This document shows, piece by piece, positions 2,781 to 29,329 of a stretch of DNA of 34,241 bases. The stretch is from an uncultured Clostridium sp. (GTDB lineage: Bacteria > Bacillota_I > Bacilli_A > RF39 > UBA660): assembly GCA_964652515.1 (NCBI GenBank), contig CAZZAK010000002.1, positions 1-34,241 of the forward strand, written 5' to 3'. The notes under the pieces were generated by a model. The model made no database searches. It was not told the origin of the DNA and was given only the letters and a program-made list of their open reading frames with translations. The stretch's first letter is position 1; each line of letters begins with the position of its first letter. The position numbers were made by a program, and so were the translations under genes.

Positions 2781-2796
2781 TAGATTGGAGTAAGGT

Positions 2797-4790: not shown

Positions 4791-4796
4791 AATTAT

Positions 4797-5986
4797 ATGT
4801 TAGAAAAGATTAAGAAAATGAAATTAATTGATTATTGGCATTTCTTAATATTAATTTTATGTTATATTCCAAGTTTGGTTTTAAAATTTATTTATCCTAA
4901 CATTTGGATTGTATCTGAAAATGGCGATGATGCAAAGGATAATGGTTTTGCTTTCTTTAAGTATATGATGACTAGTCATCCTGAAATTAAATGCTATTAT
5001 ATAATAACAAAACAAGCTAAGGATTATAAGAAGGTAGAGAAGTATAGTAAAAATCTTTTAATACATAATTCAATCAAGAGTATAATTTATATAATGGGAT
5101 GTAAGAATTTTGTATCATCACAATTGGCATCTAGTTTTCCATATTCTAATATATTTTTTAATTTGTATATGGCTCATGTTTTTAAATTTAATTATATATT
5201 TTTGCAACATGGTATAACAAAAGAGAATGTTAAATGCTTTTATAAGAACGAGAGCAATATTGACTTATTTTGTTGTGCAGCTAATCCAGAATATGATTAT
5301 GTAAAGGAATATTTTGGCTATAAAGATTATGAGGTTTCTAAACTTGGATTTTGTAGATATGATAACTTGAGTAGTGAGTTTACCAATGACGATAGCATAT
5401 TATTTATGCCTACGTGGCGTAAGTATCTTGAAGCTAGAGATGGTGTAATTAATTCAGACATTGAAAAACAATTTTTGAGTTCTAAGTACTATAAAACTAT
5501 TTATAAGTTGATTAATGATAGAAGACTAATTGAGTCTTTAGAAAAGAATAATAAAATATTGTATTTTTGTCTTCACGATAAAGCTATGATATATAAAAAA
5601 TATTTTACTTCTCCAAGTAAAAATATTATTATTGTGGATAAAAGCAGTTCTAAGACAGTTGATAAGTTAATTAGAGAATGTAAATATTTAATTACTGATA
5701 CATCAAGTGTATCTTTTGATTTTGCTTATCAAAAAAAACGATTATTGTATTATCAATTTGATTACAATGATATAATTAAAGGTCATTGGAGTAAGGGATA
5801 TTTTAATTATGATAAGGATGGTTTGGCAAGGTAGTTAAAAATCACAATGATTGTGTTAATGAAATTATTTTAGCAATTAATGAAAAATTTAAAAATAGTA
5901 AATTATATGAGCAAAGAACTAAAAATTTCTATTGTTTTAATGATAAAAATAATTGTGAGAGAACATTTAATAAGATAAGAGAATTA
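4797..5986 (+). pseudogene. TagF/TagB-family CDP-glycerol (polyol-phosphate) glycerophosphotransferase; reading frame broken by a one-base frame change near 5820-5824
   Basis: Frame-0 ORF 4797-5834 has 'LQHGITKENV', 'FMPTWRKY' and 'LITDTSSVSFDFAYQKKRLLYYQFDY'. It stops at TAG 5832-5834. The family-typical C-terminus ('FGKVVKNHNDCVNEIILAI...NDKNNCERTFNKIREL') continues in the -1 frame from 5822. Confidence 0.75.
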
Positions 5987-6076
5987 TCTGACATTAAAGA
6001 TGTAGAAAGAAAAAATAGGCGTATTAAAAATCATAAAAAAAATTATTTATTTGTTATACTAGTATCTTTACTTATT
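5816..6076 (+). other. Upstream extension of the Wzy-like ORF, with no start and no stop codon, in frame 2
   Basis: I translated this stretch codon by codon. There is no stop and no ATG/GTG/TTG between 5816 and the ATG at 6077. It encodes the TagF-like C-terminus, then the basic cluster 'ERKNRRIKNHKK', then the first half of a hydrophobic helix. Confidence 0.8.
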
Positions 6077-7444
6077 ATGTTGTTGGGAATAACATTTAAT
6101 CAATATATTTTGATGTTATTTGCTACTATTTTATTGTTTTTTCATAATTTATATTATGGTTTATTAATGCCTAAAAAAAATATATTCTTTAATTTATTTC
6201 ATGTATCTATTTTTACCTTTTTATTAGGCAAACCAATTATTCAAACCCTTTCTAGTGTTAAATGGTGGATTAAATATTCTGAATATTCTGAGAAAATGAC
6301 TTTAATTAGTATTTGGTTAACTTTATTAGGATTATTTTTGGGTTCATTTTTGAATAATAATAGAAAATTAAATGTGGATAACAAGTTTATTCTTGGAAAA
6401 AAATACTTTAATGAAAATATTTACTATATTAGAAAATATTCATTCATTATGTTTATGATAACTATATTATTTAGGTATGTTTGTGAGATTGAAAAATATA
6501 TCTTTATGTATGGTAAATCTTATACCGAATATTACTTATCATATTATTCTAGTTTGCCTTCTGTAGTCAATTTAATTGGTGGTATGGCTGTAACTTTTTT
6601 AGTTATATACTTAGTAACATTGCCAAACAAAAAAGCTACAATAGGAGTAGCATTAATATACTTGTGTTCATTTATTCCTAATTTTTTGATTGGTCAAAGA
6701 AATCCTTTAATTTTAGCTGCTTTATTATTCTTTTCATATTATGTAGTACGTGATTGGTATGAAAATTCTAACAAGTGGGTTAATGTTAAGGAAAGATTTT
6801 TGATATTGTTGATTATTCCAGTATTGATTATAGGACTTGATATATATAATTATAAGAGAGATAATGCTAGACTTAATGGTAATATGTTTGAATCTTTTGT
6901 TGATTTCTTTTATACACAAGGCATATCTTTCGATGTGTTAAATATTGGCTATAGCAATATGGATACGATTAGGTCAATGAATAAAAATTATGTTTTTGGA
7001 CCTATAGTAGATTATTACAGAGATAATACAATTGCTAAAAAAGTATTTAAGTTACCTGGCCTTGGTATAGGCAATAATGAAGTAAGAGCATTGAAGGGGA
7101 ATAGTTTTACACATATTTTAGCTTATTTGTCACGTAGTGATTACTTACAAGGTCATGGTTATGGTTCATCTTATATACTTGAGTTGTATTGCAATTATGG
7201 ATTTATTGGCTTGTTTATATTCTCAATACTTTTAGGATTTTTATTAGTTAATATTCCAATTATAATTAAATCTCAGAGTTTATTATCAATTATTGTATTG
7301 CAAATGTGTATGACTATTTATTTTCTTCCTCGAGCTGAAACCATGTCTAGCATTATGTTCATATTTACTCCTCATTTTTTAGGAAGCTTGATAGTAATGT
7401 GGTTTATAATTTATATTAAAAAAAATTTTGAGGTGTTAAGATGA
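6077..7444 (+). CDS. Wzy-like polysaccharide (O-antigen/capsule repeat-unit) polymerase, polytopic membrane protein
   Basis: About 10-12 hydrophobic segments and a large loop ('...NSFTHILAYLSRSDYLQGHGYGSSYILELYCNYGFIGL'), placed between transferases and the flippase. The first ATG (6077) has no SD and sits inside a predicted helix, so the true N-terminus is uncertain. Confidence 0.7.
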   Translation: MLLGITFNQYILMLFATILLFFHNLYYGLLMPKKNIFFNLFHVSIFTFLLGKPIIQTLSSVKWWIKYSEYSEKMTLISIWLTLLGLFLGSFLNNNRKLNVDNKFILGKKYFNENIYYIRKYSFIMFMITILFRYVCEIEKYIFMYGKSYTEYYLSYYSSLPSVVNLIGGMAVTFLVIYLVTLPNKKATIGVALIYLCSFIPNFLIGQRNPLILAALLFFSYYVVRDWYENSNKWVNVKERFLILLIIPVLIIGLDIYNYKRDNARLNGNMFESFVDFFYTQGISFDVLNIGYSNMDTIRSMNKNYVFGPIVDYYRDNTIAKKVFKLPGLGIGNNEVRALKGNSFTHILAYLSRSDYLQGHGYGSSYILELYCNYGFIGLFIFSILLGFLLVNIPIIIKSQSLLSIIVLQMCMTIYFLPRAETMSSIMFIFTPHFLGSLIVMWFIIYIKKNFEVLR

Positions 7445-8964
7445 GAACAAAGAAATCTGCTAGAAATGTGATTGTATCAACATTTAATAGTATTTTAAAT
7501 ATTATTATTAGTTTGTTTGTTCAGAAAATATTTTTAAGGATATTAGGTGAATCTTATTTAGGTTTGAATGGCGTTTTTAGCAATATGTTATCTATTTTAG
7601 CTGTTGCTGAGCTTGGTATTGGTACAGCAATAGTATATAAAATGTATCGTCCAATTGAGGAAAAAAATGAAAAACAAATTGCTAAATTAATGAATTTTTA
7701 TCGTAGATGTTATCGTATTATTATTTCTGTTATGATTTTAATAATATTGATAATATTACCATTTTTAAGGTATATCATTGGCGATACCTCTGATATAAAA
7801 GAAAATATTTATTTATTATATGGGCTCTTTTCATTAGATATTTTAATATCTTATTTGTTAGCTTACAAAAAATCTATTCTTTATGCTGATCAAAATGAGT
7901 ATATATCGAATTTGGTTCATTTAGGATATTTGATTTTCATGAATAGTTTACAAATATTTTTTCTTATTAAAACTCACGAATATTTAATATACTTAATTAT
8001 AAAGATTGCTTGTAGGTTTTTAGAAAATTTATTAATTAACTTTATTGTTAATAGAAAATATGCGTATATAGGTAGAAATAAGAATTTAGAACTTGATAAA
8101 AATGAGCAGAAAGATATATTTAAAAAAATTAAATCATTGTTTTTACATAAATTAGCTGGTTTTGTTGTAACTGGTACGGATACTATATTAATATCATTTT
8201 TTTTGGGAGGATTAGTTACTGTTGGATATTATTCTAATTACAGTTTGATAATTTCTGCAGTAACAACAGTATTTAATCAGGTATTTATTTCTATTACGTC
8301 CAGTGTTGGTAATTTATTAGTTACCGAAAGTAAAGCAAAAAGATTGGAAGTATTTAATAAGATTCAGTTTTTAAATTTTTGGTTTTTTGCTTTTGCTAGT
8401 ATTTGTATATTTTGTATAATAGAGCCATTTATTACTATATGGATTGGTTCAAAATATATTTTGTCAAAATTTGTATTAATATCTTTGGTATTTAACTTTT
8501 TTATGCAGGGTATGCGTAGAACAATGATGTCTTTTAAGGAAGCTGCTGGAATTTTTTATGAAGATAGGTATGTCCCAATTATTGAATCAGTTATTAATTT
8601 GGTTGCTTCAGTTATTTTCTTAAAAATATTTGGTTTGGCAGGGGTATTTTTAGGAACAATAACTAGTACTTTAATTGTGTATTTATATAGTTATCCTAAA
8701 ATTGTGTATGAAACGTTGTTTGGTGAAAAAGGTATAAAGTATGTGTTGTTAATTGGAAAGTATACAGTTGTTGGTACTTTTACTTTAGTAGTTACGTATT
8801 GTATTGTAAATATTATCAATATTAACAATGATTATTTACGTGTTTTGATAAATATGATTATTTGTATGGTTGTTCCCAATGTTCTATTTATGATTATATA
8901 TTGGAATAATTGTAATTTTAAATATTATTTAAATATCGTAAAAAAAATAATTCATAGAAAATAA
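7441..8964 (+). CDS. Wzx-type oligosaccharide flippase (MOP/polysaccharide biosynthesis protein family)
   Basis: 507 aa polytopic protein. N-terminus 'KKSARNVIVSTFNSILNIIISLFVQKIFLRILGESYLGLNGVF' is typical. The start overlaps the upstream stop (ATGA, 7441-7444). Confidence 0.85.
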   Translation: MRTKKSARNVIVSTFNSILNIIISLFVQKIFLRILGESYLGLNGVFSNMLSILAVAELGIGTAIVYKMYRPIEEKNEKQIAKLMNFYRRCYRIIISVMILIILIILPFLRYIIGDTSDIKENIYLLYGLFSLDILISYLLAYKKSILYADQNEYISNLVHLGYLIFMNSLQIFFLIKTHEYLIYLIIKIACRFLENLLINFIVNRKYAYIGRNKNLELDKNEQKDIFKKIKSLFLHKLAGFVVTGTDTILISFFLGGLVTVGYYSNYSLIISAVTTVFNQVFISITSSVGNLLVTESKAKRLEVFNKIQFLNFWFFAFASICIFCIIEPFITIWIGSKYILSKFVLISLVFNFFMQGMRRTMMSFKEAAGIFYEDRYVPIIESVINLVASVIFLKIFGLAGVFLGTITSTLIVYLYSYPKIVYETLFGEKGIKYVLLIGKYTVVGTFTLVVTYCIVNIININNDYLRVLINMIICMVVPNVLFMIIYWNNCNFKYYLNIVKKIIHRK

Positions 8965-8997
8965 AAACTATAAATTAATTTTAATTTATAGTTTTTT
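8965..8997. terminator. Bidirectional intrinsic terminator between convergent genes
   Basis: 12-bp perfect stem, AAACTATAAATT (8965-8976) / AATTTATAGTTT (8983-8994), followed by a T-run on the + strand. The A-rich sequence 8958-8967 supplies the weaker U-tract for the minus strand. Confidence 0.7.
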
Positions 8998-10048
8998 ATT
9001 TAAATAGTGATTCATAGTCGTAGTTTAGATAAAAATTCTTGATATCTTCTATATGCTTTTTATAATTGTCTTTTGTAAGTAAATTATCTTTGGTAGATAT
9101 TTTTTTTAATATAAATGAGTTTATTTTTTCACTGTAATGTCTAATATCTTTGTAATTATTTAAATCAGTGATTATATCATATTCATTTAAAAAGGAATAT
9201 ATATAGATATTTTTATGTTCTAATAGCAATTCTGTTACATACTGAATACAATCTAATTGCATATTTAATACTCCTTCTTGGTTGGCATTATCCCAATAGT
9301 AGATACTGTATGGAGGGTAAAATAAATAAAAATCAATATTTGGATATTTATCTGCTAAATCCGTTACATTTTGTTTAATATTTTCCCAAGCATTTTTGTA
9401 ATCAATTTGAGTAGTAATATATGTTGATTTTTTTGACATCCTAATATATTGTGAATTAGTAGCTTTTTTTGAAAATTCATACTTATTATACCATGATGCG
9501 TAATCATCAAATGATGTGCTATTTTGTTTAGTAGCTGTTTTAATGATTGATTCAAATGCATTGGTTATAGCATTTTTATTTAACAAATAATTAATATCAT
9601 TTAATTTATTATCATCATATAAATATTTTGGATAGTTATTTGAATTATATGCTATAGCATCTTTTGGTTCATTTAATTTATATAAATCTAGACATCTCAA
9701 TATTATTTTTATATTGTCATTGTAATTTGTGGCTGTTATTAAATTATCGTTGATTTCTTTAAACATTGCTCCTGCAAATGGTATTTTAATGCTATTAACA
9801 TTAAATAATTTATTAAATTCAGAAACTTTAAAATTTTCTACCATTGATGTTCCTGTTATTATTGCATTGTAATCAAAATGTTTTATAATACCATCGTTTT
9901 GGTATCTTTCATTATCGAGAATATATGCAATATTTGTTGATGGTTTACGATAATGAAAATATGGGTCAATTATAACTACTATGAATGCGAAAAAAAGAAG
10001 AATAAGTGAAGATATAATTAATAGTGTAATTACAAATTTTTTGCTCAT
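8996..10048 (-). CDS. Membrane-anchored extracytoplasmic protein, DltD/SGNH-like; probable acyl-transfer partner of the MBOAT (paralog 1)
   Basis: N-terminal TM segment. Candidate nucleophile block 'AIITGTSMVENF'. C-terminal D-x-x-H ('KDIRHYSE'). Last gene of the MBOAT operon. The family call is by motif and context only. Confidence 0.5.
   Translation of the reverse strand: MSKKFVITLLIISSLILLFFAFIVVIIDPYFHYRKPSTNIAYILDNERYQNDGIIKHFDYNAIITGTSMVENFKVSEFNKLFNVNSIKIPFAGAMFKEINDNLITATNYNDNIKIILRCLDLYKLNEPKDAIAYNSNNYPKYLYDDNKLNDINYLLNKNAITNAFESIIKTATKQNSTSFDDYASWYNKYEFSKKATNSQYIRMSKKSTYITTQIDYKNAWENIKQNVTDLADKYPNIDFYLFYPPYSIYYWDNANQEGVLNMQLDCIQYVTELLLEHKNIYIYSFLNEYDIITDLNNYKDIRHYSEKINSFILKKISTKDNLLTKDNYKKHIEDIKNFYLNYDYESLFK
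9675..9916. repeat. Near-identical 242-nt block shared by the two DltD-like paralogs (copy 1)
   Basis: Aligns without indels to 10776-11017 at a constant offset of 1101 nt, with about 18 mismatches by hand count. The flanking gene sequence is clearly more diverged. Confidence 0.85.
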
Positions 10049-10090
10049 GCTTTATTTCTCCTTTGATATGATTTCTTTAAAATTTAGTTA

Positions 10091-11152
10091 TTAATTAGAG
10101 AAGAGCTTATCATAGTTGTAATTTGTATAAAATTCTCTAATATCATTTATTTTGCTTTTATAATTATCTTTGTTAATAATCTTTTCATTATTTGCCATTT
10201 TCTGAAGCATAATTGAATTGATTTTTTCACTATAATGCTCGGTATCTTTATAATTATTTAGGTTAGTAATAATCTCATATTCATCTAAAAAAGAATATAG
10301 ATGTATGTTTTTATGTTCTAATAATAATTTTGTTGTATATTCGATATAATCTAATTCTTTATTTAGATCTCCATTCTGATTGAGATTATCCCAATAATAA
10401 ATACTATATGGAGGATAAAATAAATAGAAATCTATGTTTGGATATTTATCTGCTAAATTTGTTACATTTTGCTCAATATTATTTTTTATAGTAATATAGT
10501 CTTTCTTGGTTATTATTCTATTTTTCTTTTTTTTGCTGCTTCTAATATATTGTGAATCTACCATATCTTTTGAAAACTCAACACCAGTATATTTGTACCA
10601 AGCACTATAGTCATCAAATGTAGTGCTGTTTTCATTATCAATTGTTTGTTTTAGGAAATTAATAGAGTTAATAATAATGTCTTTATTTAATAAATATTCA
10701 ATATCATTAAATATATTGTTATCATATAAATATGTTGGATATGTATCATAAGCTATAGCATTTTTAGGTTTATTCAATTTATATAAATCTAAACATCTCA
10801 ATATTATTTTTATATTGTCATTGTAATTTGTGGCTGTTATTAAATTGTCGTTTATTTCTTTAAACATAGCTCCTTCAAATGGTATTTTAATGCTATTAAC
10901 GTTAAATAGTTTATTAAACTCAGAAACTTTAAAATTTTCTGTCATTGATGTTCCTGTTATTATTGCATTGTAGTCAAAGTGCTTTACAATCCCATCATTT
11001 TGATATCTTTGATTATCTAATGTGTAAGTTAAATGTTTTATTGGTTTATGATAATGAAAACAAGGATCAATAATAATAACAAATGAACTTAGTAAAACAA
11101 AAATAGTAATAGTAGATATTAAAGTGATAATTACAAACTTTTTACTTGACAT
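10091..11152 (-). CDS. Membrane-anchored extracytoplasmic protein, DltD/SGNH-like; probable acyl-transfer partner of the MBOAT (paralog 2)
   Basis: Same architecture as 8996-10048 ('AIITGTSMTENF', 'KDTEHYSE'). Immediately downstream of the MBOAT gene. Confidence 0.5.
   Translation of the reverse strand: MSSKKFVIITLISTITIFVLLSSFVIIIDPCFHYHKPIKHLTYTLDNQRYQNDGIVKHFDYNAIITGTSMTENFKVSEFNKLFNVNSIKIPFEGAMFKEINDNLITATNYNDNIKIILRCLDLYKLNKPKNAIAYDTYPTYLYDNNIFNDIEYLLNKDIIINSINFLKQTIDNENSTTFDDYSAWYKYTGVEFSKDMVDSQYIRSSKKKKNRIITKKDYITIKNNIEQNVTNLADKYPNIDFYLFYPPYSIYYWDNLNQNGDLNKELDYIEYTTKLLLEHKNIHLYSFLDEYEIITNLNNYKDTEHYSEKINSIMLQKMANNEKIINKDNYKSKINDIREFYTNYNYDKLFSN
10776..11017. repeat. Near-identical 242-nt block shared by the two DltD-like paralogs (copy 2)
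   Basis: See copy 1 (9675-9916). Confidence 0.85.
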
Positions 11153-11167
11153 AGTAATCCCCCTTTA

Positions 11168-12622
11168 TTAAAAATTGAAATATAAAAATGTACTAATTCC
11201 ACTAAATGATATAATACTCCATACTAGTAGTATAACTACCTTGATAATATTAATAGGTGTTGATTTGAATTTTTTGGCTTTTTCAATTGTATTTAAAGAA
11301 CCTAGCATAATTATAAATGTAATTATAAAAAATAATAGTGGTATGGCATATGGAAAATATAAATCAATTTTTAATGTTTTAAAAATTAAATTTAGTTCTG
11401 GTAATTCAAATGCGTTAATTATATTTTCATTAATTGGCCCAAAGTTACATAAAAGGATACGATAAATAATTCTTAATGCTTGTTTTATTGAATCTGCTCT
11501 AAAGAAAATCCATGCAATATTTACAAAGCCAAATGTTATCATCCAATTAAGAACTGGATGTAATTTGTCAAAGAAATTTTTATATTTTCTAGTAACTACA
11601 GAAAAAATTCCATGTAGTAATCCCCAGAAGACAAATGTCCAATTGGCACCATGCCAAAAACCACTTATTATAAATATGATTAATATATTAATGTATGTTC
11701 TTTTGACTCCTTTCTTGCTACCGCCAAGTGGAATATAAATATATTTTGTGAAGAATCTTGTTAATGTCATATGCCATCTATCCCAAAAATCATTGATATT
11801 TAATGCTTTATATGGTGAATTGAAATTAGTTGGTAAATCAATATTAAACATTTTGCCTAAGCCTATAGCCATATCGGAATATCCAGAGAAATCAAAGTAT
11901 ATTTGAATTGTGTAAGATAGCATTATAATTATAGAATTTGTTGTATTGAGAGTATCAATATTGCTGTAACCCCAGTTGACAGCTATTCCAAATACGTCAG
12001 CAATTAATACTTTTTTTGCAAGCCCTAATGTGAATATATAAATACCTTTGGCTAAATTATCCCAGTTAATGCTTTTGTTTTTTTGGTTTAAAAATTGTGG
12101 TATTAATTCATCATAAGTTACAATGGGTCCAGCAATTAGCTGTGGAAAGAATGCTACGAATGATGCATAGTATAGAAAACTATAGTTCGGAACTTCTTTT
12201 TTGTATGCATCAATAACAAATGATAATTGTTGAAATGTAAAAAAACTTATTCCTAAAGGCAATACAATATTTAAAAGATTAAAATTACAATTAAACAATT
12301 TATTAATATTGTCTATAAAGAAATCCATGTACTTGTAGTAGATAAGTATTCCAATATTAAATAATAATCCTATGTATAGGAGTAATTTTCTTGAATTCTT
12401 TTTTTCTGTGATTTTAAAAATATGGTAAATCAAATAATTTATGATAATACTTAAGATAATAATTAATAAATAATATATATTAAAGTATGCATAAAACCAT
12501 AGTGACATAATTAGTAAAAATGCCTGTGCTAATTTGTATTTTTTAAAATGATTTAAAGTAAAGTATCCTAACAAACATATTGGTAAAAATAAAAATAGAA
12601 AAATATATGAATTAAATAACAT
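11168..12622 (-). CDS. MBOAT-family membrane-bound O-acyltransferase, AlgI/PatA-like
   Basis: Start moved to the ATG at 12622 ('MLFNSYIF...', the canonical MBOAT N-terminus), 7 nt after GGAGG (plus-strand CCTCC 12630-12634). 'DFWDRWHMTLTRFFTKYIYIPLGGS' and 'SGFWHGANW' contain the conserved His. Confidence 0.9.
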   Translation of the reverse strand: MLFNSYIFLFLFLPICLLGYFTLNHFKKYKLAQAFLLIMSLWFYAYFNIYYLLIIILSIIINYLIYHIFKITEKKNSRKLLLYIGLLFNIGILIYYKYMDFFIDNINKLFNCNFNLLNIVLPLGISFFTFQQLSFVIDAYKKEVPNYSFLYYASFVAFFPQLIAGPIVTYDELIPQFLNQKNKSINWDNLAKGIYIFTLGLAKKVLIADVFGIAVNWGYSNIDTLNTTNSIIIMLSYTIQIYFDFSGYSDMAIGLGKMFNIDLPTNFNSPYKALNINDFWDRWHMTLTRFFTKYIYIPLGGSKKGVKRTYINILIIFIISGFWHGANWTFVFWGLLHGIFSVVTRKYKNFFDKLHPVLNWMITFGFVNIAWIFFRADSIKQALRIIYRILLCNFGPINENIINAFELPELNLIFKTLKIDLYFPYAIPLLFFIITFIIMLGSLNTIEKAKKFKSTPINIIKVVILLVWSIISFSGISTFLYFNF

Positions 12623-12641
12623 GCTGTTTCCTCCTTTTTTT

Positions 12642-12670
12642 ATTATATATGTATTCTTTTTGAAAATCAA
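12642..12670 (-). promoter_or_regulatory. Sigma-A-type promoter for the MBOAT operon
   Basis: On the minus strand: TTGATT (12670-12665), 17-nt spacer, TATAAT (12647-12642), just upstream of the RBS. Confidence 0.5.
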
Positions 12671-12696
12671 TTGTATTATGCTATATATAAAATATA

Positions 12697-12726
12697 TTGA
12701 CAATGTTCTTATATACAATTTATAAT
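12697..12726 (+). promoter_or_regulatory. Sigma-A-type promoter for the DUF3048 gene
   Basis: TTGACA 12697-12702, 18-nt spacer, TATAAT 12721-12726. The ATG at 12747 is preceded by AAGGTAGG. Confidence 0.55.
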
Positions 12727-12746: not shown

Positions 12747-13817
12747 ATGAGAAGTAAAATATCTAAGGGTAATGGTAAATCAAAAAGGTTAATATTTATA
12801 TTACTTATTGCAGTAGTGACTATTATAGGAATAGTTCTAATATGTATTAAATTTTTAAGTAAATCTTCTGAATCTAAAAATATTGATGTTAAAAAACCAG
12901 ATGATCCAGTTGTAGAAAAGCAAGTGCAAATAATAGACATTAATTCTAAAACTAGACCATATGCTGTCATGATTAATTGTCTTAATGAAGCGTTACCTCA
13001 ATCTGGATTAGATAAAGCATATATTGTTTATGAACTTATGGTAGAGTATGGAATAACAAGAATGTTTGCTTTATTTAAGGATGTAGACTTTGATAAAGTG
13101 GGATCAGTTAGAAGTGTTAGAAGTCAATACTTACCATATTTATTTGAAAATGATGCAATACTTGTTCATGCTGGTGGGCAAAAAGAAACTATTGATAGAA
13201 TAGCTAATGAAGGAATAACTCATATTGATGTAGATGGTCAATATGGTGTTAGAGATGGTGAACTTGCTAAAAAAAGAGCTTGGGAACATACTTTATTTAC
13301 TAATTCTAATTTGCTTTCTAAAGCTGTATCAAATATGAATATTAGGAGCACTACCGATACTAAAAATTTATTAACTTATAGTGCTTCCGAATTAGATTTA
13401 TCTAAGTATGAAACTAAGGATGCTAAAAACATTAGTATTAAGTATTCTAATTATCGTACTTCTAATTATAGTTATGATGAGAATAGTAAAACTTATTTAC
13501 GTTCCATGAATGGTACTAAGAATGTAGACTTAGTTAGTGGTAAACAATATCAAGTTAAAAATATTATTGTATATGGTGCTAAGTATACGACTTATACTTT
13601 AAGAGGAACTGGATATCAAAAGATAGAGGATATTACTTCTGGGGAGGGATACTATATTACTGATGGGGTAGTTCTTCCTATTACTTGGAGTAAATCTAGT
13701 GAAAAAGCTCAAACTGTTTATAAAATAAAAGAAGATGGAAAAGAATTAGTTGTTAATGATGGTAATACTTATATTCAGATATATCCATCTAATGGTGGAA
13801 ACTTATCTATTAGTTAA
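12747..13817 (+). CDS. DUF3048 (YerB-like) membrane-anchored protein of unknown function
   Basis: N-terminal TM segment. 'RPYAVMINCLNEALPQSGLDKAYIVYELMVEYGITRMFALF' matches the DUF3048 core as I remember it. Confidence 0.75.
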   Translation: MRSKISKGNGKSKRLIFILLIAVVTIIGIVLICIKFLSKSSESKNIDVKKPDDPVVEKQVQIIDINSKTRPYAVMINCLNEALPQSGLDKAYIVYELMVEYGITRMFALFKDVDFDKVGSVRSVRSQYLPYLFENDAILVHAGGQKETIDRIANEGITHIDVDGQYGVRDGELAKKRAWEHTLFTNSNLLSKAVSNMNIRSTTDTKNLLTYSASELDLSKYETKDAKNISIKYSNYRTSNYSYDENSKTYLRSMNGTKNVDLVSGKQYQVKNIIVYGAKYTTYTLRGTGYQKIEDITSGEGYYITDGVVLPITWSKSSEKAQTVYKIKEDGKELVVNDGNTYIQIYPSNGGNLSIS

Positions 13818-13826
13818 TTTAAGTGT

Positions 13827-13859
13827 AAAAAAATATCAATATTTATTGGTATTTTTTTT
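13827..13859 (+). terminator. Possible weak intrinsic terminator
   Basis: AT-rich hairpin (ATCAAT / ATTGGT core with one G-U pair, extended by A/T pairs) followed by a T-run at 13852-13859. Confidence 0.35.
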
Positions 13860-13897
13860 AATTTATATTAATTTATGGTATACTTAATATATGGGAG

Positions 13898-15103
13898 ATG
13901 ATTTTCGTGTATAGGAATACTTATGTTGAGGTTAATTTAGATAATATTATTAGTAATGTTAAGAATATTATTTCTAAATATGATAATTATAAATATTATA
14001 TAGGAGTTATTAAGGGACATGCTTATGGACATGGTGAATATATAGCTAAATATATAATAGAGAATGGTATTAATTATTTAGCAGTATCATCTTTGGATGA
14101 GGCTATAGAAACTAGGAAATATATTTCTATGGATTTTCCTATACTATGTTTAGAACCTATATCTTTGGATTATATAGATAAGGTAATAGAGAATAATGTT
14201 ACTTTAACAGTATCTAATATGGATTATTATGAAGAACTTAAGAAAAAAAATATTAAGATTAAATTTCATTTAAAATTAAATACTGGTATGAATAGGCTTG
14301 GTATTAGTGAAATAGCTGATATTGAAAAAATATATGAAGATACTATTAAGAATAAATCTAATTTAGAGATGGAGGGCATTTATACTCATTTGGCTACTAA
14401 TGGGGTATATGATAAATTATATAAGAGTCAGATAGATAAATTTATTTATTTAACTAGTACTATAGATTTAGAGAAAATTAAAATAGTGCATGTTGGTAGA
14501 AGTACAACATTAGATTTCTTTCCTAAATTATCTTTTGCTAATGGTGTAAGACTTGGAATAATGATGTATGGTATTAAATCTACTTTTCCTAGTAATAAGG
14601 GCATTAGAAATAAATTGAGAAACTGGAAGTATGCTAAGATAAGAGAAAAATATAATTTACCAATTCCTTATACCGAAAATGATTTAGAACTTAAACAATG
14701 TTTTAGCTTATATAGTCAAGTTATTGATATAGTTAAAATTAAGAAGGGTGATACTGTAGGATATGGTTCATCTAATATTGTTCCTAAAAGTGGATTTATT
14801 GCTACGATACCTTTAGGTTATGCTGATGGTGTGTCTACTAACTATAAGAAGATAGAAGTTAATATTAATGGTAAAAAATATCCAGTAGTAGGTACTATAA
14901 ATATGGGTATGATGACAATACTTGTTGATAAGAATGTATCTTTATATGATAAAGTGGAAGTTATTTCTATTAATGAATCATATAAGGAGAAAGCTAGAGG
15001 TATGGGGGTAACTCCTTATGTATTTATGACAGGTATTAATAGTAATGTTTATAGGGTATATATTAAAGATAGAAAAGTAATAAAAGTTATTGGAGGAAAT
15101 TAG
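13898..15103 (+). CDS. Alanine-racemase-family PLP racemase (divergent)
   Basis: PLP-Lys 'VIKGHAYGHG', 'HLKLNTGMNRLG', 'GIYTHLAT', 'VRLGIMMYG', 'VGYG' and 'PLGYADG' align to Lys39/Arg136/His166/Arg219/Tyr265 of the Geobacillus enzyme. The start could instead be GTG 13907, 9 nt after GGGAG. A TGgTATACT extended -10 lies at 13876-13884. Confidence 0.85.
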   Translation: MIFVYRNTYVEVNLDNIISNVKNIISKYDNYKYYIGVIKGHAYGHGEYIAKYIIENGINYLAVSSLDEAIETRKYISMDFPILCLEPISLDYIDKVIENNVTLTVSNMDYYEELKKKNIKIKFHLKLNTGMNRLGISEIADIEKIYEDTIKNKSNLEMEGIYTHLATNGVYDKLYKSQIDKFIYLTSTIDLEKIKIVHVGRSTTLDFFPKLSFANGVRLGIMMYGIKSTFPSNKGIRNKLRNWKYAKIREKYNLPIPYTENDLELKQCFSLYSQVIDIVKIKKGDTVGYGSSNIVPKSGFIATIPLGYADGVSTNYKKIEVNINGKKYPVVGTINMGMMTILVDKNVSLYDKVEVISINESYKEKARGMGVTPYVFMTGINSNVYRVYIKDRKVIKVIGGN

Positions 15104-15104
15104 A

Positions 15105-16322
15105 ATGGATTTTGATGTAGTGTTAATTGGAACAGATATTAATGCCTATTATATGGCTAGAAATTTTCATGAAGAATATGGTATTAATTCACATGTTATT
15201 GGTAGGGTACCTATGTTATTTACTAGTTTAAGTTCTATAGTTGATATAACTATGGTAGAGGATTTATTAGATAATAAAGTTTTTGTTGATACTTTAATAG
15301 ATATGGCTAAGAAAATTAATAAGAAAAAAATAATTCTTATAGGTTGTAATGATGAATATGTATCTTTGATAATTAAAAATAGTAAGGAGTTATCTAAGTA
15401 TTATTTATTTAATTATACTAATCAGGAATTATTATCTAAATTGGTTAATAAAGAGAATTTTTATGAATCATTTAAAGATTCTATATTAGATTTTCCTTTA
15501 ACATATATATATGATGTTAAGAAAGAATTAGATATTAATGAAATAAATAAATTTAGATATCCGATTATTATTAAAGCAAGTAATGTTATAGAATATCATA
15601 TTCATGATTTTGATGGGCAAGCTAAAGTATATAAATTAAATACTTTAGAAGAAGTAGAGGATACTATTAAAATGATAAAAGATTCTGGATATTCTGATAA
15701 ACTTATTATTCAAGAGTATATACCTGGTGGGGATGATAAATTATTTGATAGCGTATTCTATGTATCAAGCAAAGGTAATGTAGAGCTACAATCATTTGGT
15801 CAAATAGGTCTTCAAGAGCATACTAAAACTGGTATAGGGAACTTAACGGTTTTAATTAATGGATATAATCAGTTTGGTGGAACTAAAGAGATACAAGAAA
15901 AATTAAAAAGATTTTTAGAGAGTATTAAATTTAATGGAGCTTGTGAATTTGATTTAAAATATGATATTCGTGATAAGAAGTTTAAAGTATTTGAAATTAA
16001 TCCTAGGCAGGCTAGAAGCAGTTATTATTTAACTAAGTGTGGTTATAATTTAGCTAAGTATTTTGTAGATGATTTAATTTATAATAAAGAACATGATTTT
16101 GTATTTATAGAAAATGAGGTAGCTTTATCTTTTGTACCTGATTATGTTATACGAAAGTATATAAAGAATAAAGAGTATAAAAAGAAATTCTTTTCGTTAA
16201 AAAGAAAAGGATTGTTTACTCATCCGATTGCTTATGATAAAGATATGCCAAAAGAAAGAAAAAAATGGTTATTTAGGAGAAGTTTAAATTATATTAGAAA
16301 ATATCGAGAAGGTAGATGGTAA
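15105..16322 (+). CDS. ATP-grasp ligase, COG3919 / D-aspartate-ligase (Aslfm)-like
   Basis: ATG 15105 lies 8 nt after GGAGG 15092-15096 and 1 nt after the racemase stop. 'VVLIGTDINAYYMARNFHEEYG' resembles the Asl N-terminus as I recall it. ATP-grasp blocks 'IIIKASN', 'LIIQEYIPGGDD' and 'EFDLKYD...FKVFEINPR' are present. Confidence 0.7.
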   Translation: MDFDVVLIGTDINAYYMARNFHEEYGINSHVIGRVPMLFTSLSSIVDITMVEDLLDNKVFVDTLIDMAKKINKKKIILIGCNDEYVSLIIKNSKELSKYYLFNYTNQELLSKLVNKENFYESFKDSILDFPLTYIYDVKKELDINEINKFRYPIIIKASNVIEYHIHDFDGQAKVYKLNTLEEVEDTIKMIKDSGYSDKLIIQEYIPGGDDKLFDSVFYVSSKGNVELQSFGQIGLQEHTKTGIGNLTVLINGYNQFGGTKEIQEKLKRFLESIKFNGACEFDLKYDIRDKKFKVFEINPRQARSSYYLTKCGYNLAKYFVDDLIYNKEHDFVFIENEVALSFVPDYVIRKYIKNKEYKKKFFSLKRKGLFTHPIAYDKDMPKERKKWLFRRSLNYIRKYREGRW

Positions 16323-16325
16323 TTA

Positions 16326-18161
16326 ATGTGTGGATTTGTAGGATTTGTTGATAAGAGTCCAAAAAGTAAAAAAGATAAAATTATTAAGAAAATGGCTGAT
16401 ATTATCAAGCATAGAGGACCTGATTCTGATGGGTATTATACTGATGATGATGTTGCATTAGGTTTTAGAAGGTTATCTATTATAGATTTATCTGGTGGTA
16501 CTCAGCCTATATATAGTGAGAAAAAAGACTATGTAATAGTATTTAATGGAGAAATATATAACTATCAGGAAATTAGGGCTGAACTTAAGAAAAAGGGTTA
16601 TAAATTTAAAACTAATACTGATACTGAAGTAATACTTAATGGATATATTGAGTATAAGGAAAAGATTCTTAATAAGCTTAGAGGTATGTTTGCTTTTATT
16701 GTTTATGATATTAAAAATAAAATAGTTTTTGGAGCAAGAGATTTCTTTGGTATTAAGCCTTTATATTATGGAATACATGATGATTTATTTATATTTGGTT
16801 CTGAAATTAAAAGCTTTTTAGGACATCCTAATTTTAAGAAAGAATTAAATAAAGATGCATTAAAGCCTTATTTAACATTTCAGTATTCTCCATTAAATGA
16901 GACATTTTTTAAGAATGTTTATAAGTTAGATCCTGGTCATTATTTTATATATAAGAATGATAAACTAGAAATTAAAACTTATTATGAGATAGAATATGAC
17001 AATAAGAAAGATGAACCATTAGATAAGGTAATTGATGATATTAATAAATGTATGAAAGAAAGTGTTTTCTATCATAAAATAGCAGATGTTGAAGTAGGAT
17101 CATTCTTATCTAGTGGTGTTGATTCATCATATATTGTTAGTATTTCAGATGTTGATAAGACATATACGGTTGGTTTTAAGACTGATGGTTTTGACGAAAC
17201 GGAACCTGCTAGAGAATTATCGAAAATGTTAAAGAAAAAACATAGGGAAGAATATATTACAGAAGATATGTTTTTTGATGCTATTCCTAAAGTACAATAT
17301 TATTCTGATGAACCTCATGCTAATTTATCAGCTGTTCCTTTATATTATTTATCTAAAATGGCAAGAGAGGACTTAAAGGTAGTATTATCTGGAGAAGGTG
17401 CTGATGAATTGTTTGGGGGATATCTAGAATACTATGAATCTGATTTTGTTAAAAAATATAAAAAGATTCCATATGGTATTAGACATGTTTTAGGAGTTAT
17501 AGCTAAGAAATTTCCTAAGATGTGGGGTAGAAACTTCTTAGTTAGATGTGGTATGCCTTTATATGATCATTATATTGGACAAGCATTTATTATGGATAAT
17601 GAAGAAGCTAATTCATTATTGACAAGTGAATATAAGAATAAATTAACTTATCAAGATGTAGTAAAAGATACTTGTAATAAGGTTAAAGATAAAGAAGAGA
17701 TTATTCAGAAAATGTATTTGGATATGAAATATTGGTTACCTTATGATATATTACTTAAGGCTGATAAGATGACAATGGCTAATTCACTAGAATTAAGAGT
17801 ACCATTTTTGGATAAGGAAGTATTTAAATTAGCTAGTAAGATACCTACTAAATATTTAGTTAATGAAGGTACTACTAAATATGCTTTTAGAAAAGCAGCT
17901 TATGAAAAGATACCAGAAGAATGGTCTAAGAGAAAGAAAATGGGATTTTTAGTTCCTATTCGCGAATGGTTAAGAGAAGAAAAATATTATAATTTAGTTC
18001 ATGATATGTTTAATAGAGAATGGGTTAGTGAATTCTTTAATATAGATAAGATTAATAAGTTATTAGATGATCATTATAACAATCAAAAAAACAATCAAAG
18101 AAAGATATATACTATTTATGCTTTCTTAGTATGGTATAATGAATATTTCATAGAGAGATGA
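16326..18161 (+). CDS. asnB: Glutamine-hydrolysing asparagine synthase family amidotransferase (AsnB-like)
   Basis: N-terminal nucleophile 'MCGFVGF'. PP-loop 'SFLSSGVDSS'. 611 aa. Confidence 0.9.
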   Translation: MCGFVGFVDKSPKSKKDKIIKKMADIIKHRGPDSDGYYTDDDVALGFRRLSIIDLSGGTQPIYSEKKDYVIVFNGEIYNYQEIRAELKKKGYKFKTNTDTEVILNGYIEYKEKILNKLRGMFAFIVYDIKNKIVFGARDFFGIKPLYYGIHDDLFIFGSEIKSFLGHPNFKKELNKDALKPYLTFQYSPLNETFFKNVYKLDPGHYFIYKNDKLEIKTYYEIEYDNKKDEPLDKVIDDINKCMKESVFYHKIADVEVGSFLSSGVDSSYIVSISDVDKTYTVGFKTDGFDETEPARELSKMLKKKHREEYITEDMFFDAIPKVQYYSDEPHANLSAVPLYYLSKMAREDLKVVLSGEGADELFGGYLEYYESDFVKKYKKIPYGIRHVLGVIAKKFPKMWGRNFLVRCGMPLYDHYIGQAFIMDNEEANSLLTSEYKNKLTYQDVVKDTCNKVKDKEEIIQKMYLDMKYWLPYDILLKADKMTMANSLELRVPFLDKEVFKLASKIPTKYLVNEGTTKYAFRKAAYEKIPEEWSKRKKMGFLVPIREWLREEKYYNLVHDMFNREWVSEFFNIDKINKLLDDHYNNQKNNQRKIYTIYAFLVWYNEYFIER

Positions 18162-18165
18162 TAAT

Positions 18166-19599
18166 ATGATAAAACTAAATAAATTATTTAAATGTGATTA
18201 TGATGTAGATATTAATGGTATTTCTGTAAATAGTAAAGATACTAATCCAGGCGACTTGTTTGTATGTATTAAAGGTGCTACAGTAGATAGACATGATTTT
18301 ATAGATGAAGCTATAAAAAACGGTGCAGTAGCATTAGTAACTAGTCATCCTGTTGATAGTAGTGTTCCTTATGTGGTCGTGGATAATCCTAATTTAGAAG
18401 TTTCTAGATTGGCTAAATTAATATATGATAATCCATGTGATAAACTTCATATGTTAGGAGTTACTGGTACGGATGGAAAAACAAGTGTATCTACAATAGT
18501 ATCTAAATTAATTGGACAAGATAAATGTGGATATATGGGTACTAATGGATATGCTACTAGTAAGTTTAATAGAAAAACTGATAATACAACTCCTTCTGCT
18601 GATAAATTATATAAATATTTAGATGATATTTATGATGCAGGGTGTGATAGTGTTTGTATGGAATTATCTAGTGAATCTATGTTATTTAATAGAATTAATG
18701 ATTTATCTTTTGATGTTATTGGTCTTACTAATATAACAAGTGAACACTTGAATAATCATAAAACGTTAGATAATTATATAGAATGTAAGAAAAAAATATT
18801 GGGATTAGTAAAGAAAGATGGTTATGTTATTTTAAATCATGATGATAGTCACTATCAGAAATGCTTTGATTATGTTAAATGTAATATACTAACATATGGA
18901 AAAAGTTATGATTCAGATTTGCAAATAGTAGATTATAATTTAATGGTTAACAAAACTGATATTACATATAAATATAAGAATAAGACATATAATATATCTT
19001 CACCTTTAGTAGGAGAATTTAATGTTTATAATTTAGCTTGTGCACTTCTTATATGTATAGCTAATGGTTATGATATGGAAAAGTTAATTAATAACACTAA
19101 TTTACTACATGTTGATGGTAGAATGGAATTTATAAATTGTGGTCAAAACTTTAGTGTGATAGTAGACTATGCTCATACAGAAGCTGGTATTACTAAATTA
19201 CTTGAGTTTATTCATTCTCTTAAATATAATCATTTAATTGTAGTTATAGGTCAAGCTGGAGAAAGAGATACAGAGAAACGTTCTAAAGTTGGTAAGATAG
19301 TAGCTACTAATGCAGATATGGCAATATTTTGTTATGAAGATCCTCGGAGTGAGGATCCAGCTGATATTATTGATATGATGACTAAGGATATAAAAAATCT
19401 TAATAATTATAAAGTTATTATTGATAGAAGAAAAGCTATTAATTATGCTATTAATAATGCAAAGGAAAATGATATTGTTTTAGTACTTGGTAAGGGTAAT
19501 GAAGATTATCAAAAATTAAGGACTGGTACAATACATTTTAATGACATTGAAGAATGTAAGAAGGCATTAAATAATTTAAAAGTAGTAAATAATATATAA
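18166..19599 (+). CDS. murE: UDP-N-acetylmuramoyl-L-alanyl-D-glutamate : diamino-acid ligase (MurE)
   Basis: Canonical MurE domain 1 ('DLFVCIKGATVDRHDFIDEAIKNGAVALVT'). P-loop 'GVTGTDGKTS', 'DYAHTEAG' and 'GQAGERD'. Specificity motif reads 'EDPR' (19336-19347). Confidence 0.9.
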   Translation: MIKLNKLFKCDYDVDINGISVNSKDTNPGDLFVCIKGATVDRHDFIDEAIKNGAVALVTSHPVDSSVPYVVVDNPNLEVSRLAKLIYDNPCDKLHMLGVTGTDGKTSVSTIVSKLIGQDKCGYMGTNGYATSKFNRKTDNTTPSADKLYKYLDDIYDAGCDSVCMELSSESMLFNRINDLSFDVIGLTNITSEHLNNHKTLDNYIECKKKILGLVKKDGYVILNHDDSHYQKCFDYVKCNILTYGKSYDSDLQIVDYNLMVNKTDITYKYKNKTYNISSPLVGEFNVYNLACALLICIANGYDMEKLINNTNLLHVDGRMEFINCGQNFSVIVDYAHTEAGITKLLEFIHSLKYNHLIVVIGQAGERDTEKRSKVGKIVATNADMAIFCYEDPRSEDPADIIDMMTKDIKNLNNYKVIIDRRKAINYAINNAKENDIVLVLGKGNEDYQKLRTGTIHFNDIEECKKALNNLKVVNNI

Positions 19600-19625
19600 A
19601 AATTAATGGGAAAAGGGTAGTAATA

Positions 19626-20858
19626 ATGAAAAAATTAGGAATTAAAAAAATTATATTTATTGTATTGGGAATAACCATATTATTGGGTGTTAGTATTTAT
19701 TTTTTAGTATTTTATAATAAAACTATCGTATATAAATGTTCAAAAGGTTATACTCAACTTAGGTATTCTAATAAGAGGCTTAATAGGAAATATTGGTCTT
19801 GTAAATTAGCAGGCATATATAAGTGTAAAAATTGTACTGTTAGTGATAATGGCGATGATTATATATTTTTTATGCAATTGCGTGACGGGGAAAAGAAAGA
19901 TTTTGTAAATTCATATGATTATGTTATATTTAATACTAGTACAAAGGAGCAGATAGCTACTATTGAGAAGGCTTCTCCTGGGGATTTTTCACCTTTAGTT
20001 TATAATGATGGTAAATTGGTTGCTCTTAAATTAATAAAATATGATGCTGTCGATGGAAGTGGTCATTCTATTATATATAATTTGAATCAAAATAAAGAAA
20101 CAGTAGCATTAACTTCTGCAAGGGGATTTCATTCTCGTAAGTATGCTGTTTCTTTAAGCGAATATAAAATACTCAATTCTGAGGGTAATGAGGTAAATGA
20201 AGATAATATAGCAAATAATTTAATAATAACAACAGAGGCTGGTGGTAATAATGATAGTATTTTCGATTATCTTAAGTTTGGTTTGACAAATATTGAAACT
20301 GGGGAAGTAGTTATTCCTGTTGAAAATAAAGTGTTGTATAGAACAACTTATGGTAATTTTATAGGTATTATAGATACTCCTAGAAGCCCTATAATAAGTT
20401 TATATAATGCCAAAGGAGAATTGAAATATCAACAAGGTTTGCTTTTGCCAAATCCTGCTTTTGTTGTAGAAGATGCGGGGGATGATTATATTTTGGTTGA
20501 TAATCTAATAGATTATAACTCAAAATATTTTGAGTTAATGGATTATAATGGTAATAAAGTATCTAATAGTAAAATTTATTGGTCAGATATTATAAGTGAA
20601 TTGTTGAAGAAAATAAAACAAACAGAATATTATGATAAGTATGCTAATATTGATGATCTTTATATAATGGAAGCATATAAAACTGGTACTTTTAAGATTA
20701 ATTGTAGTTATGATGAAAATAGTTCTTTTGGTGATAAATTAGAATATATAACGTTTTCTTTGTTTGATGCATATGATACTAAAGCTTATAAACCTTTGAT
20801 TGCTTCAATCACTTATGAATTCAACATGACTAAGAATACTTTAAAAAAAATTGATTAA
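19626..20858 (+). CDS. Hypothetical membrane-anchored protein
   Basis: N-terminal TM ('IIFIVLGITILLGVSIYFLVF'), then a Cys-containing segment and a large domain I cannot assign. Lies 26 nt downstream of murE. Confidence 0.6.
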   Translation: MKKLGIKKIIFIVLGITILLGVSIYFLVFYNKTIVYKCSKGYTQLRYSNKRLNRKYWSCKLAGIYKCKNCTVSDNGDDYIFFMQLRDGEKKDFVNSYDYVIFNTSTKEQIATIEKASPGDFSPLVYNDGKLVALKLIKYDAVDGSGHSIIYNLNQNKETVALTSARGFHSRKYAVSLSEYKILNSEGNEVNEDNIANNLIITTEAGGNNDSIFDYLKFGLTNIETGEVVIPVENKVLYRTTYGNFIGIIDTPRSPIISLYNAKGELKYQQGLLLPNPAFVVEDAGDDYILVDNLIDYNSKYFELMDYNGNKVSNSKIYWSDIISELLKKIKQTEYYDKYANIDDLYIMEAYKTGTFKINCSYDENSSFGDKLEYITFSLFDAYDTKAYKPLIASITYEFNMTKNTLKKID

Positions 20859-20863
20859 TAAAT

Positions 20864-20894
20864 AAAAAAATCACATCATCTGATGTGTTTTTTT
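20864..20894. terminator. Bidirectional intrinsic terminator
   Basis: A-run, CACATCA (20872-20878) / TGATGTG (20881-20887), T-run. Sits between convergent genes and overlaps the DUF378 stop codon. Confidence 0.6.
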
Positions 20895-27310: not shown

Positions 27311-27343
27311 ATGCTTGACAAAGCATTTTCTTTATGTTAGTAT
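27311..27343 (+). promoter_or_regulatory. Sigma-A-type promoter overlapping a short hairpin that could also terminate gatCAB
   Basis: TTGACA 27315-27320, 17-nt spacer, TGtTAGTAT (TG 27335-27336, -10 27338-27343). The inverted repeat ATGCTT (27311-27316) / AAGCAT (27321-27326), followed by TTTTCTTT, includes the -35. Confidence 0.5.
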
Positions 27344-27374
27344 AGTTGGTAATTTTAAAAGGAGGATTTTAATT

Positions 27375-29315: not shown

Positions 29316-29329
29316 GGGGGAAATAATTT

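Follow-up and report, generated by a model that had tools for sequence, protein, structure and literature searches.

Which residue does a peptidoglycan pathway build when an alanine-racemase-like gene stands where an aspartate racemase gene is usual? The question is raised by a block of four genes on contig CAZZAK010000002.1 of an uncultured Clostridium sp. (GCA_964652515.1); the whole stretch of DNA analysed, 34,241 nt, is referred to here as the window. All four genes lie on the + strand and encode, in this order, a pyridoxal phosphate (PLP) racemase of the alanine racemase (Alr) fold (13898-15103), an ATP-grasp carboxylate-amine ligase of the Asl family (15105-16322), a glutamine-dependent amidotransferase of the AsnB family (16326-18161) and a MurE (UDP-MurNAc-L-Ala-D-Glu: amino acid ligase) whose specificity motif is non-canonical (18166-19599). 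The known pathway for D-Asp side chains comprises Aslfm and Racfm in Enterococcus faecium and AslA, RacD and AsnH in Lactococcus lactis (Bellais 2006; Veiga 2006 and 2009), and a review that covers this work assigns RacD, AslA and AsnH of Latilactobacillus curvatus to the pathway defined in these two species (PMC13631041). An earlier reading of the window (hereafter the original prediction) had proposed a dedicated stem-peptide side-chain pathway, which is supported here by the homology of the ligase and AsnB to asl loci and by a conserved pairing of racemase and ligase. We consider it likely that the four genes, probably together with two flanking open reading frames (ORFs), form an Asl/AsnH-type module for the side chain of the peptidoglycan stem peptide, in which an Alr paralogue replaces RacD.

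The ligase was compared with Asl ligases (D-aspartate ligase, EC 6.3.1.12) through a tblastn search of annotated records, which led to chromosome fragments filed as plasmids. It is 31% identical to the ligase of L. curvatus (arrangement aspS-racD-ligase), 34% to those of Lactobacillus crispatus (asnB-ligase) and Limosilactobacillus fermentum (ligase alone) and 35% to that of Subdoligranulum variabile (ligase-racD-asnB). These identities cover about 400 residues, essentially the full length (E 1e-61 to 1e-73), and refer to these four ligases. The resemblance to Asl that the original prediction had noted at the N-terminus is thus a full-length homology. We take the Asl-bearing species of the comparison to have walls of the Lys/Orn-D-Asp type. 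General family models add little: Pfam gave weak ATP-grasp matches only, NCBIfam a weak CPS-like match only, and no curated model covering the ligase was found in either. The AlphaFold2 (AF2) model has a mean predicted local distance difference test (pLDDT) score of 93, and Foldseek aligns it with PurK, biotin carboxylase and L-amino-acid ligases at template-modelling (TM) scores of about 0.6 and at most 16% identity. These are generic ATP-grasp folds; a sequence search of the PDB gave nothing relevant, and neither search returned a solved structure for the ligase. A role as an analogue of Ddl was also considered and found unsupported, the homology being to Asl.

An exhaustive search of representatives gave 2312 proteins matching the ligase. 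Two members of the family, 33-38% identical to the window ligase, bear a C-terminal Asp_Glu_race domain, and several close homologues are named "D-aspartate ligase" by JGI, which is an annotation label only. The window ligase itself has no aspartate racemase partner (RacD, PF01177), either adjacent or fused; the Alr-fold gene lies upstream instead. Elsewhere in the family, Asl-like ATP-grasp domains were seen with an N-terminal DegT-like PLP domain (P0185, P0245, P0252 and P0168), and one of these proteins (P0168, 1235 aa) has an additional C-terminal FemAB domain. These domain arrangements suggest a wider Asl family served by further donor-supply enzymes.

The association of racemase and ligase was then examined across genomes. 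One genome per GTDB species was scanned with an alignment of this ligase clade, which gave 442 loci, of which the best 80 were kept. All 80 come from metagenome-assembled genomes (MAGs) or uncultured-isolate assemblies, and the carriers belong to Bacilli, Clostridia, "Tenericutes", Erysipelotrichaceae, Acutalibacteraceae, Lachnospiraceae, Coriobacteriia and Saccharibacteria; no cultured carrier with a published wall chemotype is among them. In 67 of these 80 loci the gene immediately before that of the ligase, in the same orientation, encodes a homologue of the window racemase (33-60% identity), and three of the 13 others end at a contig edge. The gap between the two genes has a median of 9 nt (range -29 to 258). 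Pairwise distances of racemases and ligases are strongly correlated (Mantel r 0.80, reached by 0 of 999 permutations). In one case, P0406 (L104, 6001-8388), the two proteins are joined in a single in-frame ORF of 795 aa, which was seen on three contigs with asnB downstream; identity to the window racemase is 47% for the N-terminal part, and identity to the window ligase 52% for the C-terminal part. A query that does find racD in L. curvatus and S. variabile gave no RacD-type gene in any of the 80 loci. An adjacency seen in this many GTDB species representatives (67 of 80) is not due to chance. The proposal that an Alr-fold racemase stands in place of the usual aspartate racemase therefore holds well beyond the window, in a pairing that is conserved, co-diverging and once fused. 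By sequence, the racemase is a specialised paralogue in a distinct and widespread clade rather than a stray alr.

Some loci of the scan depart from this picture or add to it. In one genome (L036, 5679-6908) a PF06838 (Met_gamma_lyase/YnbB-like) PLP enzyme is found directly upstream of the ligase, in the usual place of the racemase. Distant family members (P0129, P0133 and P0188, 31-39% identity) have no adjacent racemase and do not reveal the point at which the partner was switched. Two Coriobacteriales MAGs from termite gut (L011 and L025) show the order asnB-murJ-racemase-ligase. Their ligase is 60-70% identical to ligases of metagenomic contigs and about 56-59% to those of Bacilli and Clostridia MAGs; a search with it gave Firmicutes-like metagenomic proteins, and not Collinsella or Olsenella. 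Because no Coriobacteriia relative ranks near this ligase, horizontal transfer of the module into Coriobacteriales is suggested. An aminotransferase and an SDF transporter beside the fusion gene of L104 were at one point taken as a hint of Asp supply; this was dropped, the pair not being recurrent in other loci and the aminotransferase looking DapL-like by eye.

The racemase matches Ala_racemase_N and Ala_racemase_C. It scores 223 bits with TIGR00492 (cutoff 168) in two stretches, whereas the canonical Alr of a related locus scores 377 bits in a single one. Its AF2 model (pLDDT 92.4) superposes on solved Alr structures with TM 0.82-0.86 at 25-31% identity. The PLP lysine (Lys39), Tyr265', Arg136, His166 and Arg219 are kept in the window racemase and in all ligase-linked copies, and Tyr354 is kept in the window racemase. 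In the alignments compared, those to the closest solved racemases, residues ~224-262 (398-aa numbering; 14576-14692, + strand) are unmatched, each alignment breaking at 228/264. This clade-specific insertion of about 27 residues is located at the junction of the barrel and the C-terminal domain, directly after the MYG strand. It is basic, is predicted by AF2 as a helix (233-249) plus a loop, and has the conserved pattern G.K.KLR..K. The linker from barrel to domain counts 41 residues in the window and 32-42 in all 67 linked copies, against 14 in six canonical Alr. In the 1SFT structure the C-terminal end of the last barrel strand faces the active site; since the insertion follows this strand, it is probably positioned at the substrate entrance.

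A second difference concerns the entryway. Arg309' is absent from all 67 linked racemases, and the window racemase has GTINMGM in place of G-R-x-C/S-M-D, so that NMGM (14900-14911, + strand) occupies the position of C311-M312-D313-Q314 in Alr and Asp313 becomes Gly. The motif at this position varies among linked copies (NMGM in 22, CMDM in 14, CMGM in 10, others in the rest). Loss of Asp313 was considered as a hallmark of the clade and ruled out, CMD being retained in 16 of the 67; the consistent features of the clade are the insertion and the loss of Arg309'. The atypical character ascribed from the start to this Alr-fold enzyme is borne out by the insertion and by NMGM at the CMDQ position. 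No racemase of this clade was found in the plasmid collection.

These data bear on a simpler explanation, in which the racemase would be a housekeeping alanine racemase that happens to lie near wall genes, the ligase a standard D-Asp ligase, and D-Asp would come from a RacD encoded elsewhere or from uptake. The score above the TIGR00492 cutoff, the catalytic residues, Tyr354 and the name alanine racemase given in public annotations all fit this explanation. It is hard to reconcile with a distinct clade that has a conserved insertion and a remodelled entryway, and with a gene that overlaps or abuts the ligase gene in different phyla, diverges in step with it and forms one ORF with it in P0406. 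In addition, a canonical Alr (14-residue linker, GRxCMDQ) is present within 5 kb of the module in six loci, each in a different genome. We therefore regard a housekeeping role as unlikely, and the label "alanine racemase", which stems from automatic annotation, as likely wrong or incomplete.

The third gene encodes a complete AsnB-family protein (TIGR01536 539 bits, cutoff 267), with an N-terminal nucleophile (Ntn) glutaminase domain beginning MCGFVG, Cys2 included, and an Asn_synthase domain. An AsnB homologue is located within about 7 kb of the ligase gene, usually adjacent to it, in 29 of the 80 loci. The window protein shares 46% identity with the AsnB encoded next to asl in L. crispatus, 50% with that of the asl-racD-asnB locus of S. 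variabile and 48.7% with that of Collinsella aerofaciens. Its six best matches in the plasmid collection (45.5-50.5%) are from Planococcus, Subdoligranulum, Sporosarcina, C. aerofaciens, L. curvatus and L. crispatus, and the next (40-43.5%) from Bacillus, Priestia, Listeria and Paenibacillus. Walls of the A4 type, with a D-dicarboxylic amino acid, are presumably found in the first group, and walls with meso-diaminopimelate (mDAP) in the second. This distribution makes the window AsnB a probable AsnH-type amidase of a side-chain carboxylate. As the identity gradient is small (45-50% against 40-43%), we infer the target carboxylate rather than read it from the protein.

The last gene of the block encodes a MurE with three Mur-ligase domains (TIGR01085 427 bits, cutoff 257). 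Residues 391-394 (19336-19347, + strand), at the specificity position that reads DNPR in mDAP enzymes and DNPA in Lys enzymes, are EDPR. The Asn and Arg of DNPR hydrogen-bond the distal carboxylate of mDAP (PMC3829189). The closest solved relatives are the Lys enzyme of Staphylococcus aureus and the L/D-Lys enzyme of Thermotoga maritima, and the closest motifs are DDPR of T. maritima and EDPA of C. aerofaciens. With the L-Lys model NF010628 the window MurE scores 305 (cutoff 536); it lacks the D(D/N)P(N/A) motif and retains the Arg. MurEs adjacent to the module in other loci have EDPR, EDAR, DDLH, EDPG or VDPY and never DNPR, while DNPR MurEs are found farther from the module in three loci. 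We conclude that the window MurE is not a canonical mDAP enzyme; L-Lys or L-Orn is its likely substrate.

Other genomes offer parallels for this MurE. In C. aerofaciens a MurE with EDPA is encoded in an asnB-murE arrangement, and the wall of this species was reportedly described by Kageyama in 1999 as A4-beta with L-Orn-D-Asp. Table 1 of a separate paper includes A4-beta among the variants, citing a group of references that contains Kageyama 1999 (PMC11382707). Among the closest relatives without an adjacent racemase, an arginase-like gene is present on the opposite strand between asnB and murE (L005, 11123-11983; also L017). It scores just below the rocF cutoff (TIGR01229 221 bits, cutoff 228) and hints at a supply of L-Orn for the wall. 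In L015, a Bacillales MAG and the closest GTDB representative, a MurE gene stands on either side of the module (4347-5804 and 10100-11569), one with EDPR and one with DNNR. Lysinibacillus sphaericus has Lys in its vegetative wall and mDAP in its spore cortex; by analogy, the two paralogues of L015 may make different stem peptides for the vegetative wall and the spore cortex.

Taken together, the genes fit the following sequence of steps. MurE would install the diamino acid at position 3, for which EDPR argues against canonical mDAP and for L-Lys or L-Orn. The Alr-fold PLP racemase would produce a D-amino acid, and the Asl-family ligase would activate the carboxylate of this D-amino acid as an acyl phosphate and couple it, on the UDP-MurNAc-peptide, to the amino group in the side chain of position 3. 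AsnB would then amidate the carboxylate left free. The substrates of all the steps are what we infer; the homology, the conserved adjacency, the co-divergence and the natural fusion are observed. For the D-amino acid we give D-Asp, which would yield a side chain of D-iso-asparagine, about an even chance. It is favoured because the Alr paralogue occupies the exact position of racD, because the same type of AsnB accompanies the RacD-linked and the Alr-linked arrangements, and because, of the D-amino acids in the wall, D-Asp alone calls for a source of its own.

Several observations weigh against this reading or parts of it. We know of no Alr-fold enzyme that racemises Asp, and residues beside the active site vary within the racemase clade. 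At three polar positions the ligase consistently has another residue than RacD-linked Asl (Q237 for E, G253 for E and E281 for N), which could mean another donor. As the racemase exceeds the alanine-racemase equivalog cutoff and retains Tyr354, it may still act on Ala. The mDAP-ligase model NF001126 scores the window MurE at 438 (cutoff 373), a result that we discount as evidence for mDAP, the model also passing MurEs with DDLH and EDAR. S. variabile, with its asl-racD-asnB locus, has a DNPR MurE, so that an Asl pathway needs no MurE for Lys or Orn. The count of 67 in 80, moreover, covers only the best 80 of 442 loci, whose ligases share 45% identity or more with that of the window.

Part of this evidence fits the same architecture with a different donor. 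In that case D-Ser, D-Glu, D-Ala or a D-diamino acid, for example, would be made by the racemase and attached by the ligase, which would give a side-chain or cross-bridge chemistry not so far linked to genes, and AsnB would amidate that residue or another carboxylate of the wall. The characterised Alr-fold racemases, as named in the PDB, act on Ala, Ser, Lys, His or broad neutral and basic sets. The three polar ligase positions are candidates for specificity, residues beside the active site vary in the racemase clade, and the pairing of the wider ligase family with DegT-like PLP domains and FemAB points to diverse donors in that family. A donor that keeps a free carboxylate, however, would fit the AsnBs, which are 46-50% identical beside RacD-linked and Alr-linked ligases alike. 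D-Glu and D-Ala have housekeeping sources that would make a dedicated paralogue redundant, and the positional replacement of racD suggests that the product is the same. A donor other than D-Asp is accordingly possible, and we hold it to be the weaker candidate.

The direction of the ligase reaction could also be questioned. The carboxylate that the ligase activates might belong to the stem peptide, as the alpha-carboxyl of D-Glu or the distal carboxyl of mDAP, with the D-amino acid serving as the amine and AsnB making a terminal amide. The chemotypes of Schleifer and Kandler do include D-Orn or D-Lys bridges on D-Glu and D-Ala-amide or Gly-amide substituents, and Erysipelotrichaceae MAGs are among the matches. 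To our knowledge no genes have been assigned to these D-Glu-linked bridges and amides. The full-length homology of the ligase is to Asl, which activates the carboxylate of a free D-amino acid, and AsnB is of the type found in Asl loci; we found no specific positive evidence for a reversed reaction. Such a scheme, whose product would resemble B-type or D-Glu alpha-substituted walls, is very improbable.

The genomic surroundings were considered next. Neighbours that recur beside the module are murE, a MurJ-like flippase, murA, a GT4 (MraY/TagO-like) transferase, spoIID, mreB and M23 peptidases, and in Saccharibacteria a FemX-like gene; these names come from reading cluster representatives and are given by resemblance. 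In the window a Wzy-type polysaccharide locus (6-8964) and a divergent MBOAT cassette (8996-12718) precede the block, and the original prediction had offered decoration of this polysaccharide by racemase, ligase and AsnB, instead of peptidoglycan, as an alternative. Proximity is the argument for it. The block is a separate unit with the divergent cassette in between, and the genes conserved beside it in other genomes are those for peptidoglycan and cell shape. In a close relative the module directly follows rpsL-rpsG-fusA-tuf, while on the window's contig PBP5, an LCP protein, the polysaccharide cluster and the MBOAT cassette are found between tuf and the module. Since the nearest relatives have the module right after fusA-tuf and lack the polysaccharide block, this locus is outside the conserved unit. 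Decoration of the polysaccharide is not supported, and we give it hardly any credence. When alr, racD and ddl were sought by extending the window's contig, one end gave only fusA-tuf, PBP5 and the LCP protein.

Two other observations concern these neighbouring regions. The MBOAT cassette (- strand) encodes a DltB/AlgI-like O-acyltransferase and two membrane-anchored proteins of about 350 aa without Pfam match. Within the polysaccharide locus, the window reads TTT at 5822-5824 where an otherwise identical contig reads TTTT (L105, 13723-13726); this difference of 1 nt breaks an 882-aa ORF, a fusion of glycerophosphotransferase and Wzy, into two ORFs (4797-5834 and 6077-7444). Sequencing error, a pseudogene and phase variation are all possible explanations.

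The organisation of the block was also analysed. As had been predicted, the four ORFs form a tight cluster on one strand, with gaps of 1, 3 and 4 nt. These short gaps suggest translational coupling; the stronger statement that they imply co-translation goes beyond what gaps can prove. The ATG of the ligase at 15105 is preceded by GGAGGA, and the ORF listing stretches the ligase to a TTG at 15090. Gene calls on metagenomes start the racemase at GTG 13907 rather than 13898, which gives 398 aa. An identical locus was found on several metagenome contigs. The window, which comes from a low-GC gut bacterium, has about 25% GC, and its + strand shows a strong positive GC skew.

That MurE and AsnB share a transcription unit with the racemase and ligase is supported, and the unit is probably even longer than four genes: it may span 12747-20858 on the + strand. 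A sigma-70-like promoter (12697-12726, + strand; TTGACA-18-TATAAT, 12/12 positions, by consensus match only) lies 5' of a gene for a DUF3048 protein with an N-terminal membrane anchor (12747-13817), possibly co-transcribed with the block, and no terminator-like site was found between this gene and that of the racemase. On the other side, a membrane-anchored protein of 410 aa without family match (19626-20858) is encoded by what is probably the last gene of the unit. Downstream of it is a terminator-like hairpin (20872-20887, + strand) with a T-run to 20897; it is the only one on the + strand in intergenic regions, a weaker match being located within the racemase gene. Both flanking ORFs appear to share the promoter and terminator of the four genes, and both are conserved only in near-identical contigs. 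An Rfam scan of the window gave no RNA element. Further along the window, downstream of gatCAB, two large adjacent ORFs (27315-31075; 666 and 581 aa) have no Pfam match.

It is conceivable, if doubtful, that the ligase-linked Alr clade makes a D-amino acid other than D-Asp and that the Asl-like ligase puts it on the stem peptide; a large group of uncultured gut Bacilli and Clostridia, together with some Saccharibacteria and Coriobacteriia, would then have in common a side-chain chemistry that is without assigned genes or has never been described, and the wall chemistry itself would be new. If instead the racemase acts on Asp, a non-orthologous enzyme would have displaced RacD, the Alr fold would have a new specificity, and the clade would be the first bacterial PLP-dependent aspartate racemase of fold-type III. 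Peptidoglycan side chains govern cross-linking, sensitivity to lysozyme, endolysins and antibiotics, and the muropeptides visible to host immunity, and few uncultured gut Bacillota or Saccharibacteria have a known wall chemotype. The conserved racemase-ligase(-AsnB) module could serve in these lineages as a genomic marker for an A4-type, side-chain-bearing wall, and it marks an uncharacterised branch of the alanine racemase family.

Compared with known systems, the outline of the pathway is that of Asl/AsnH; what is new is the displaced racemase, the wide spread in uncultured lineages and the non-canonical MurE. Our literature search found no description of an Asl-family ligase, or of an ATP-grasp enzyme, paired with an alanine racemase. 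The window shares with the E. faecium and L. lactis pathway an ATP-grasp ligase of the same family, an adjacent racemase gene and an AsnB-family enzyme in the locus, here beside the ligase as in L. crispatus and S. variabile. It differs in that its racemase is a fold-type III PLP enzyme and not a PLP-independent Asp/Glu racemase, in that murE is in the same operon, and at the three polar positions of the ligase. With Alr/DadX (Geobacillus stearothermophilus 1SFT, Bacillus anthracis 2VD8) the racemase shares fold and catalytic residues; unlike them, its clade has the basic insertion, lacks Arg309', often has an altered CMD and is coupled or fused to a ligase. The specialised relatives of Alr that offer themselves for comparison are the Ser racemase VanT and the Lys, His and broad-spectrum racemases. 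AsnB-family amidotransferases of the wall act on D-Asp (AsnH of L. lactis) or on mDAP (AsnB1 of Lactiplantibacillus plantarum, AsnB of Bacillus subtilis, LtsA of Corynebacterium glutamicum). The window AsnB has their full-length architecture and N-terminal Cys and is encoded beside murE as in C. aerofaciens, at identities to the AsnH and mDAP-amidating members that do not by themselves separate the two. MurE enzymes fall into those with DNPR (Escherichia coli and Mycobacterium tuberculosis, mDAP), DNPA (S. aureus, L-Lys) and DDPR (T. maritima, L- and D-Lys). The window MurE, which shares no more than 35% identity with each of the characterised or named MurEs compared, departs from the mDAP class by Asp in place of the carboxylate-binding Asn and Glu in place of the first Asp; it keeps the Arg of DNPR, as does T. 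maritima, and shares E-D-P with the EDPA of C. aerofaciens.

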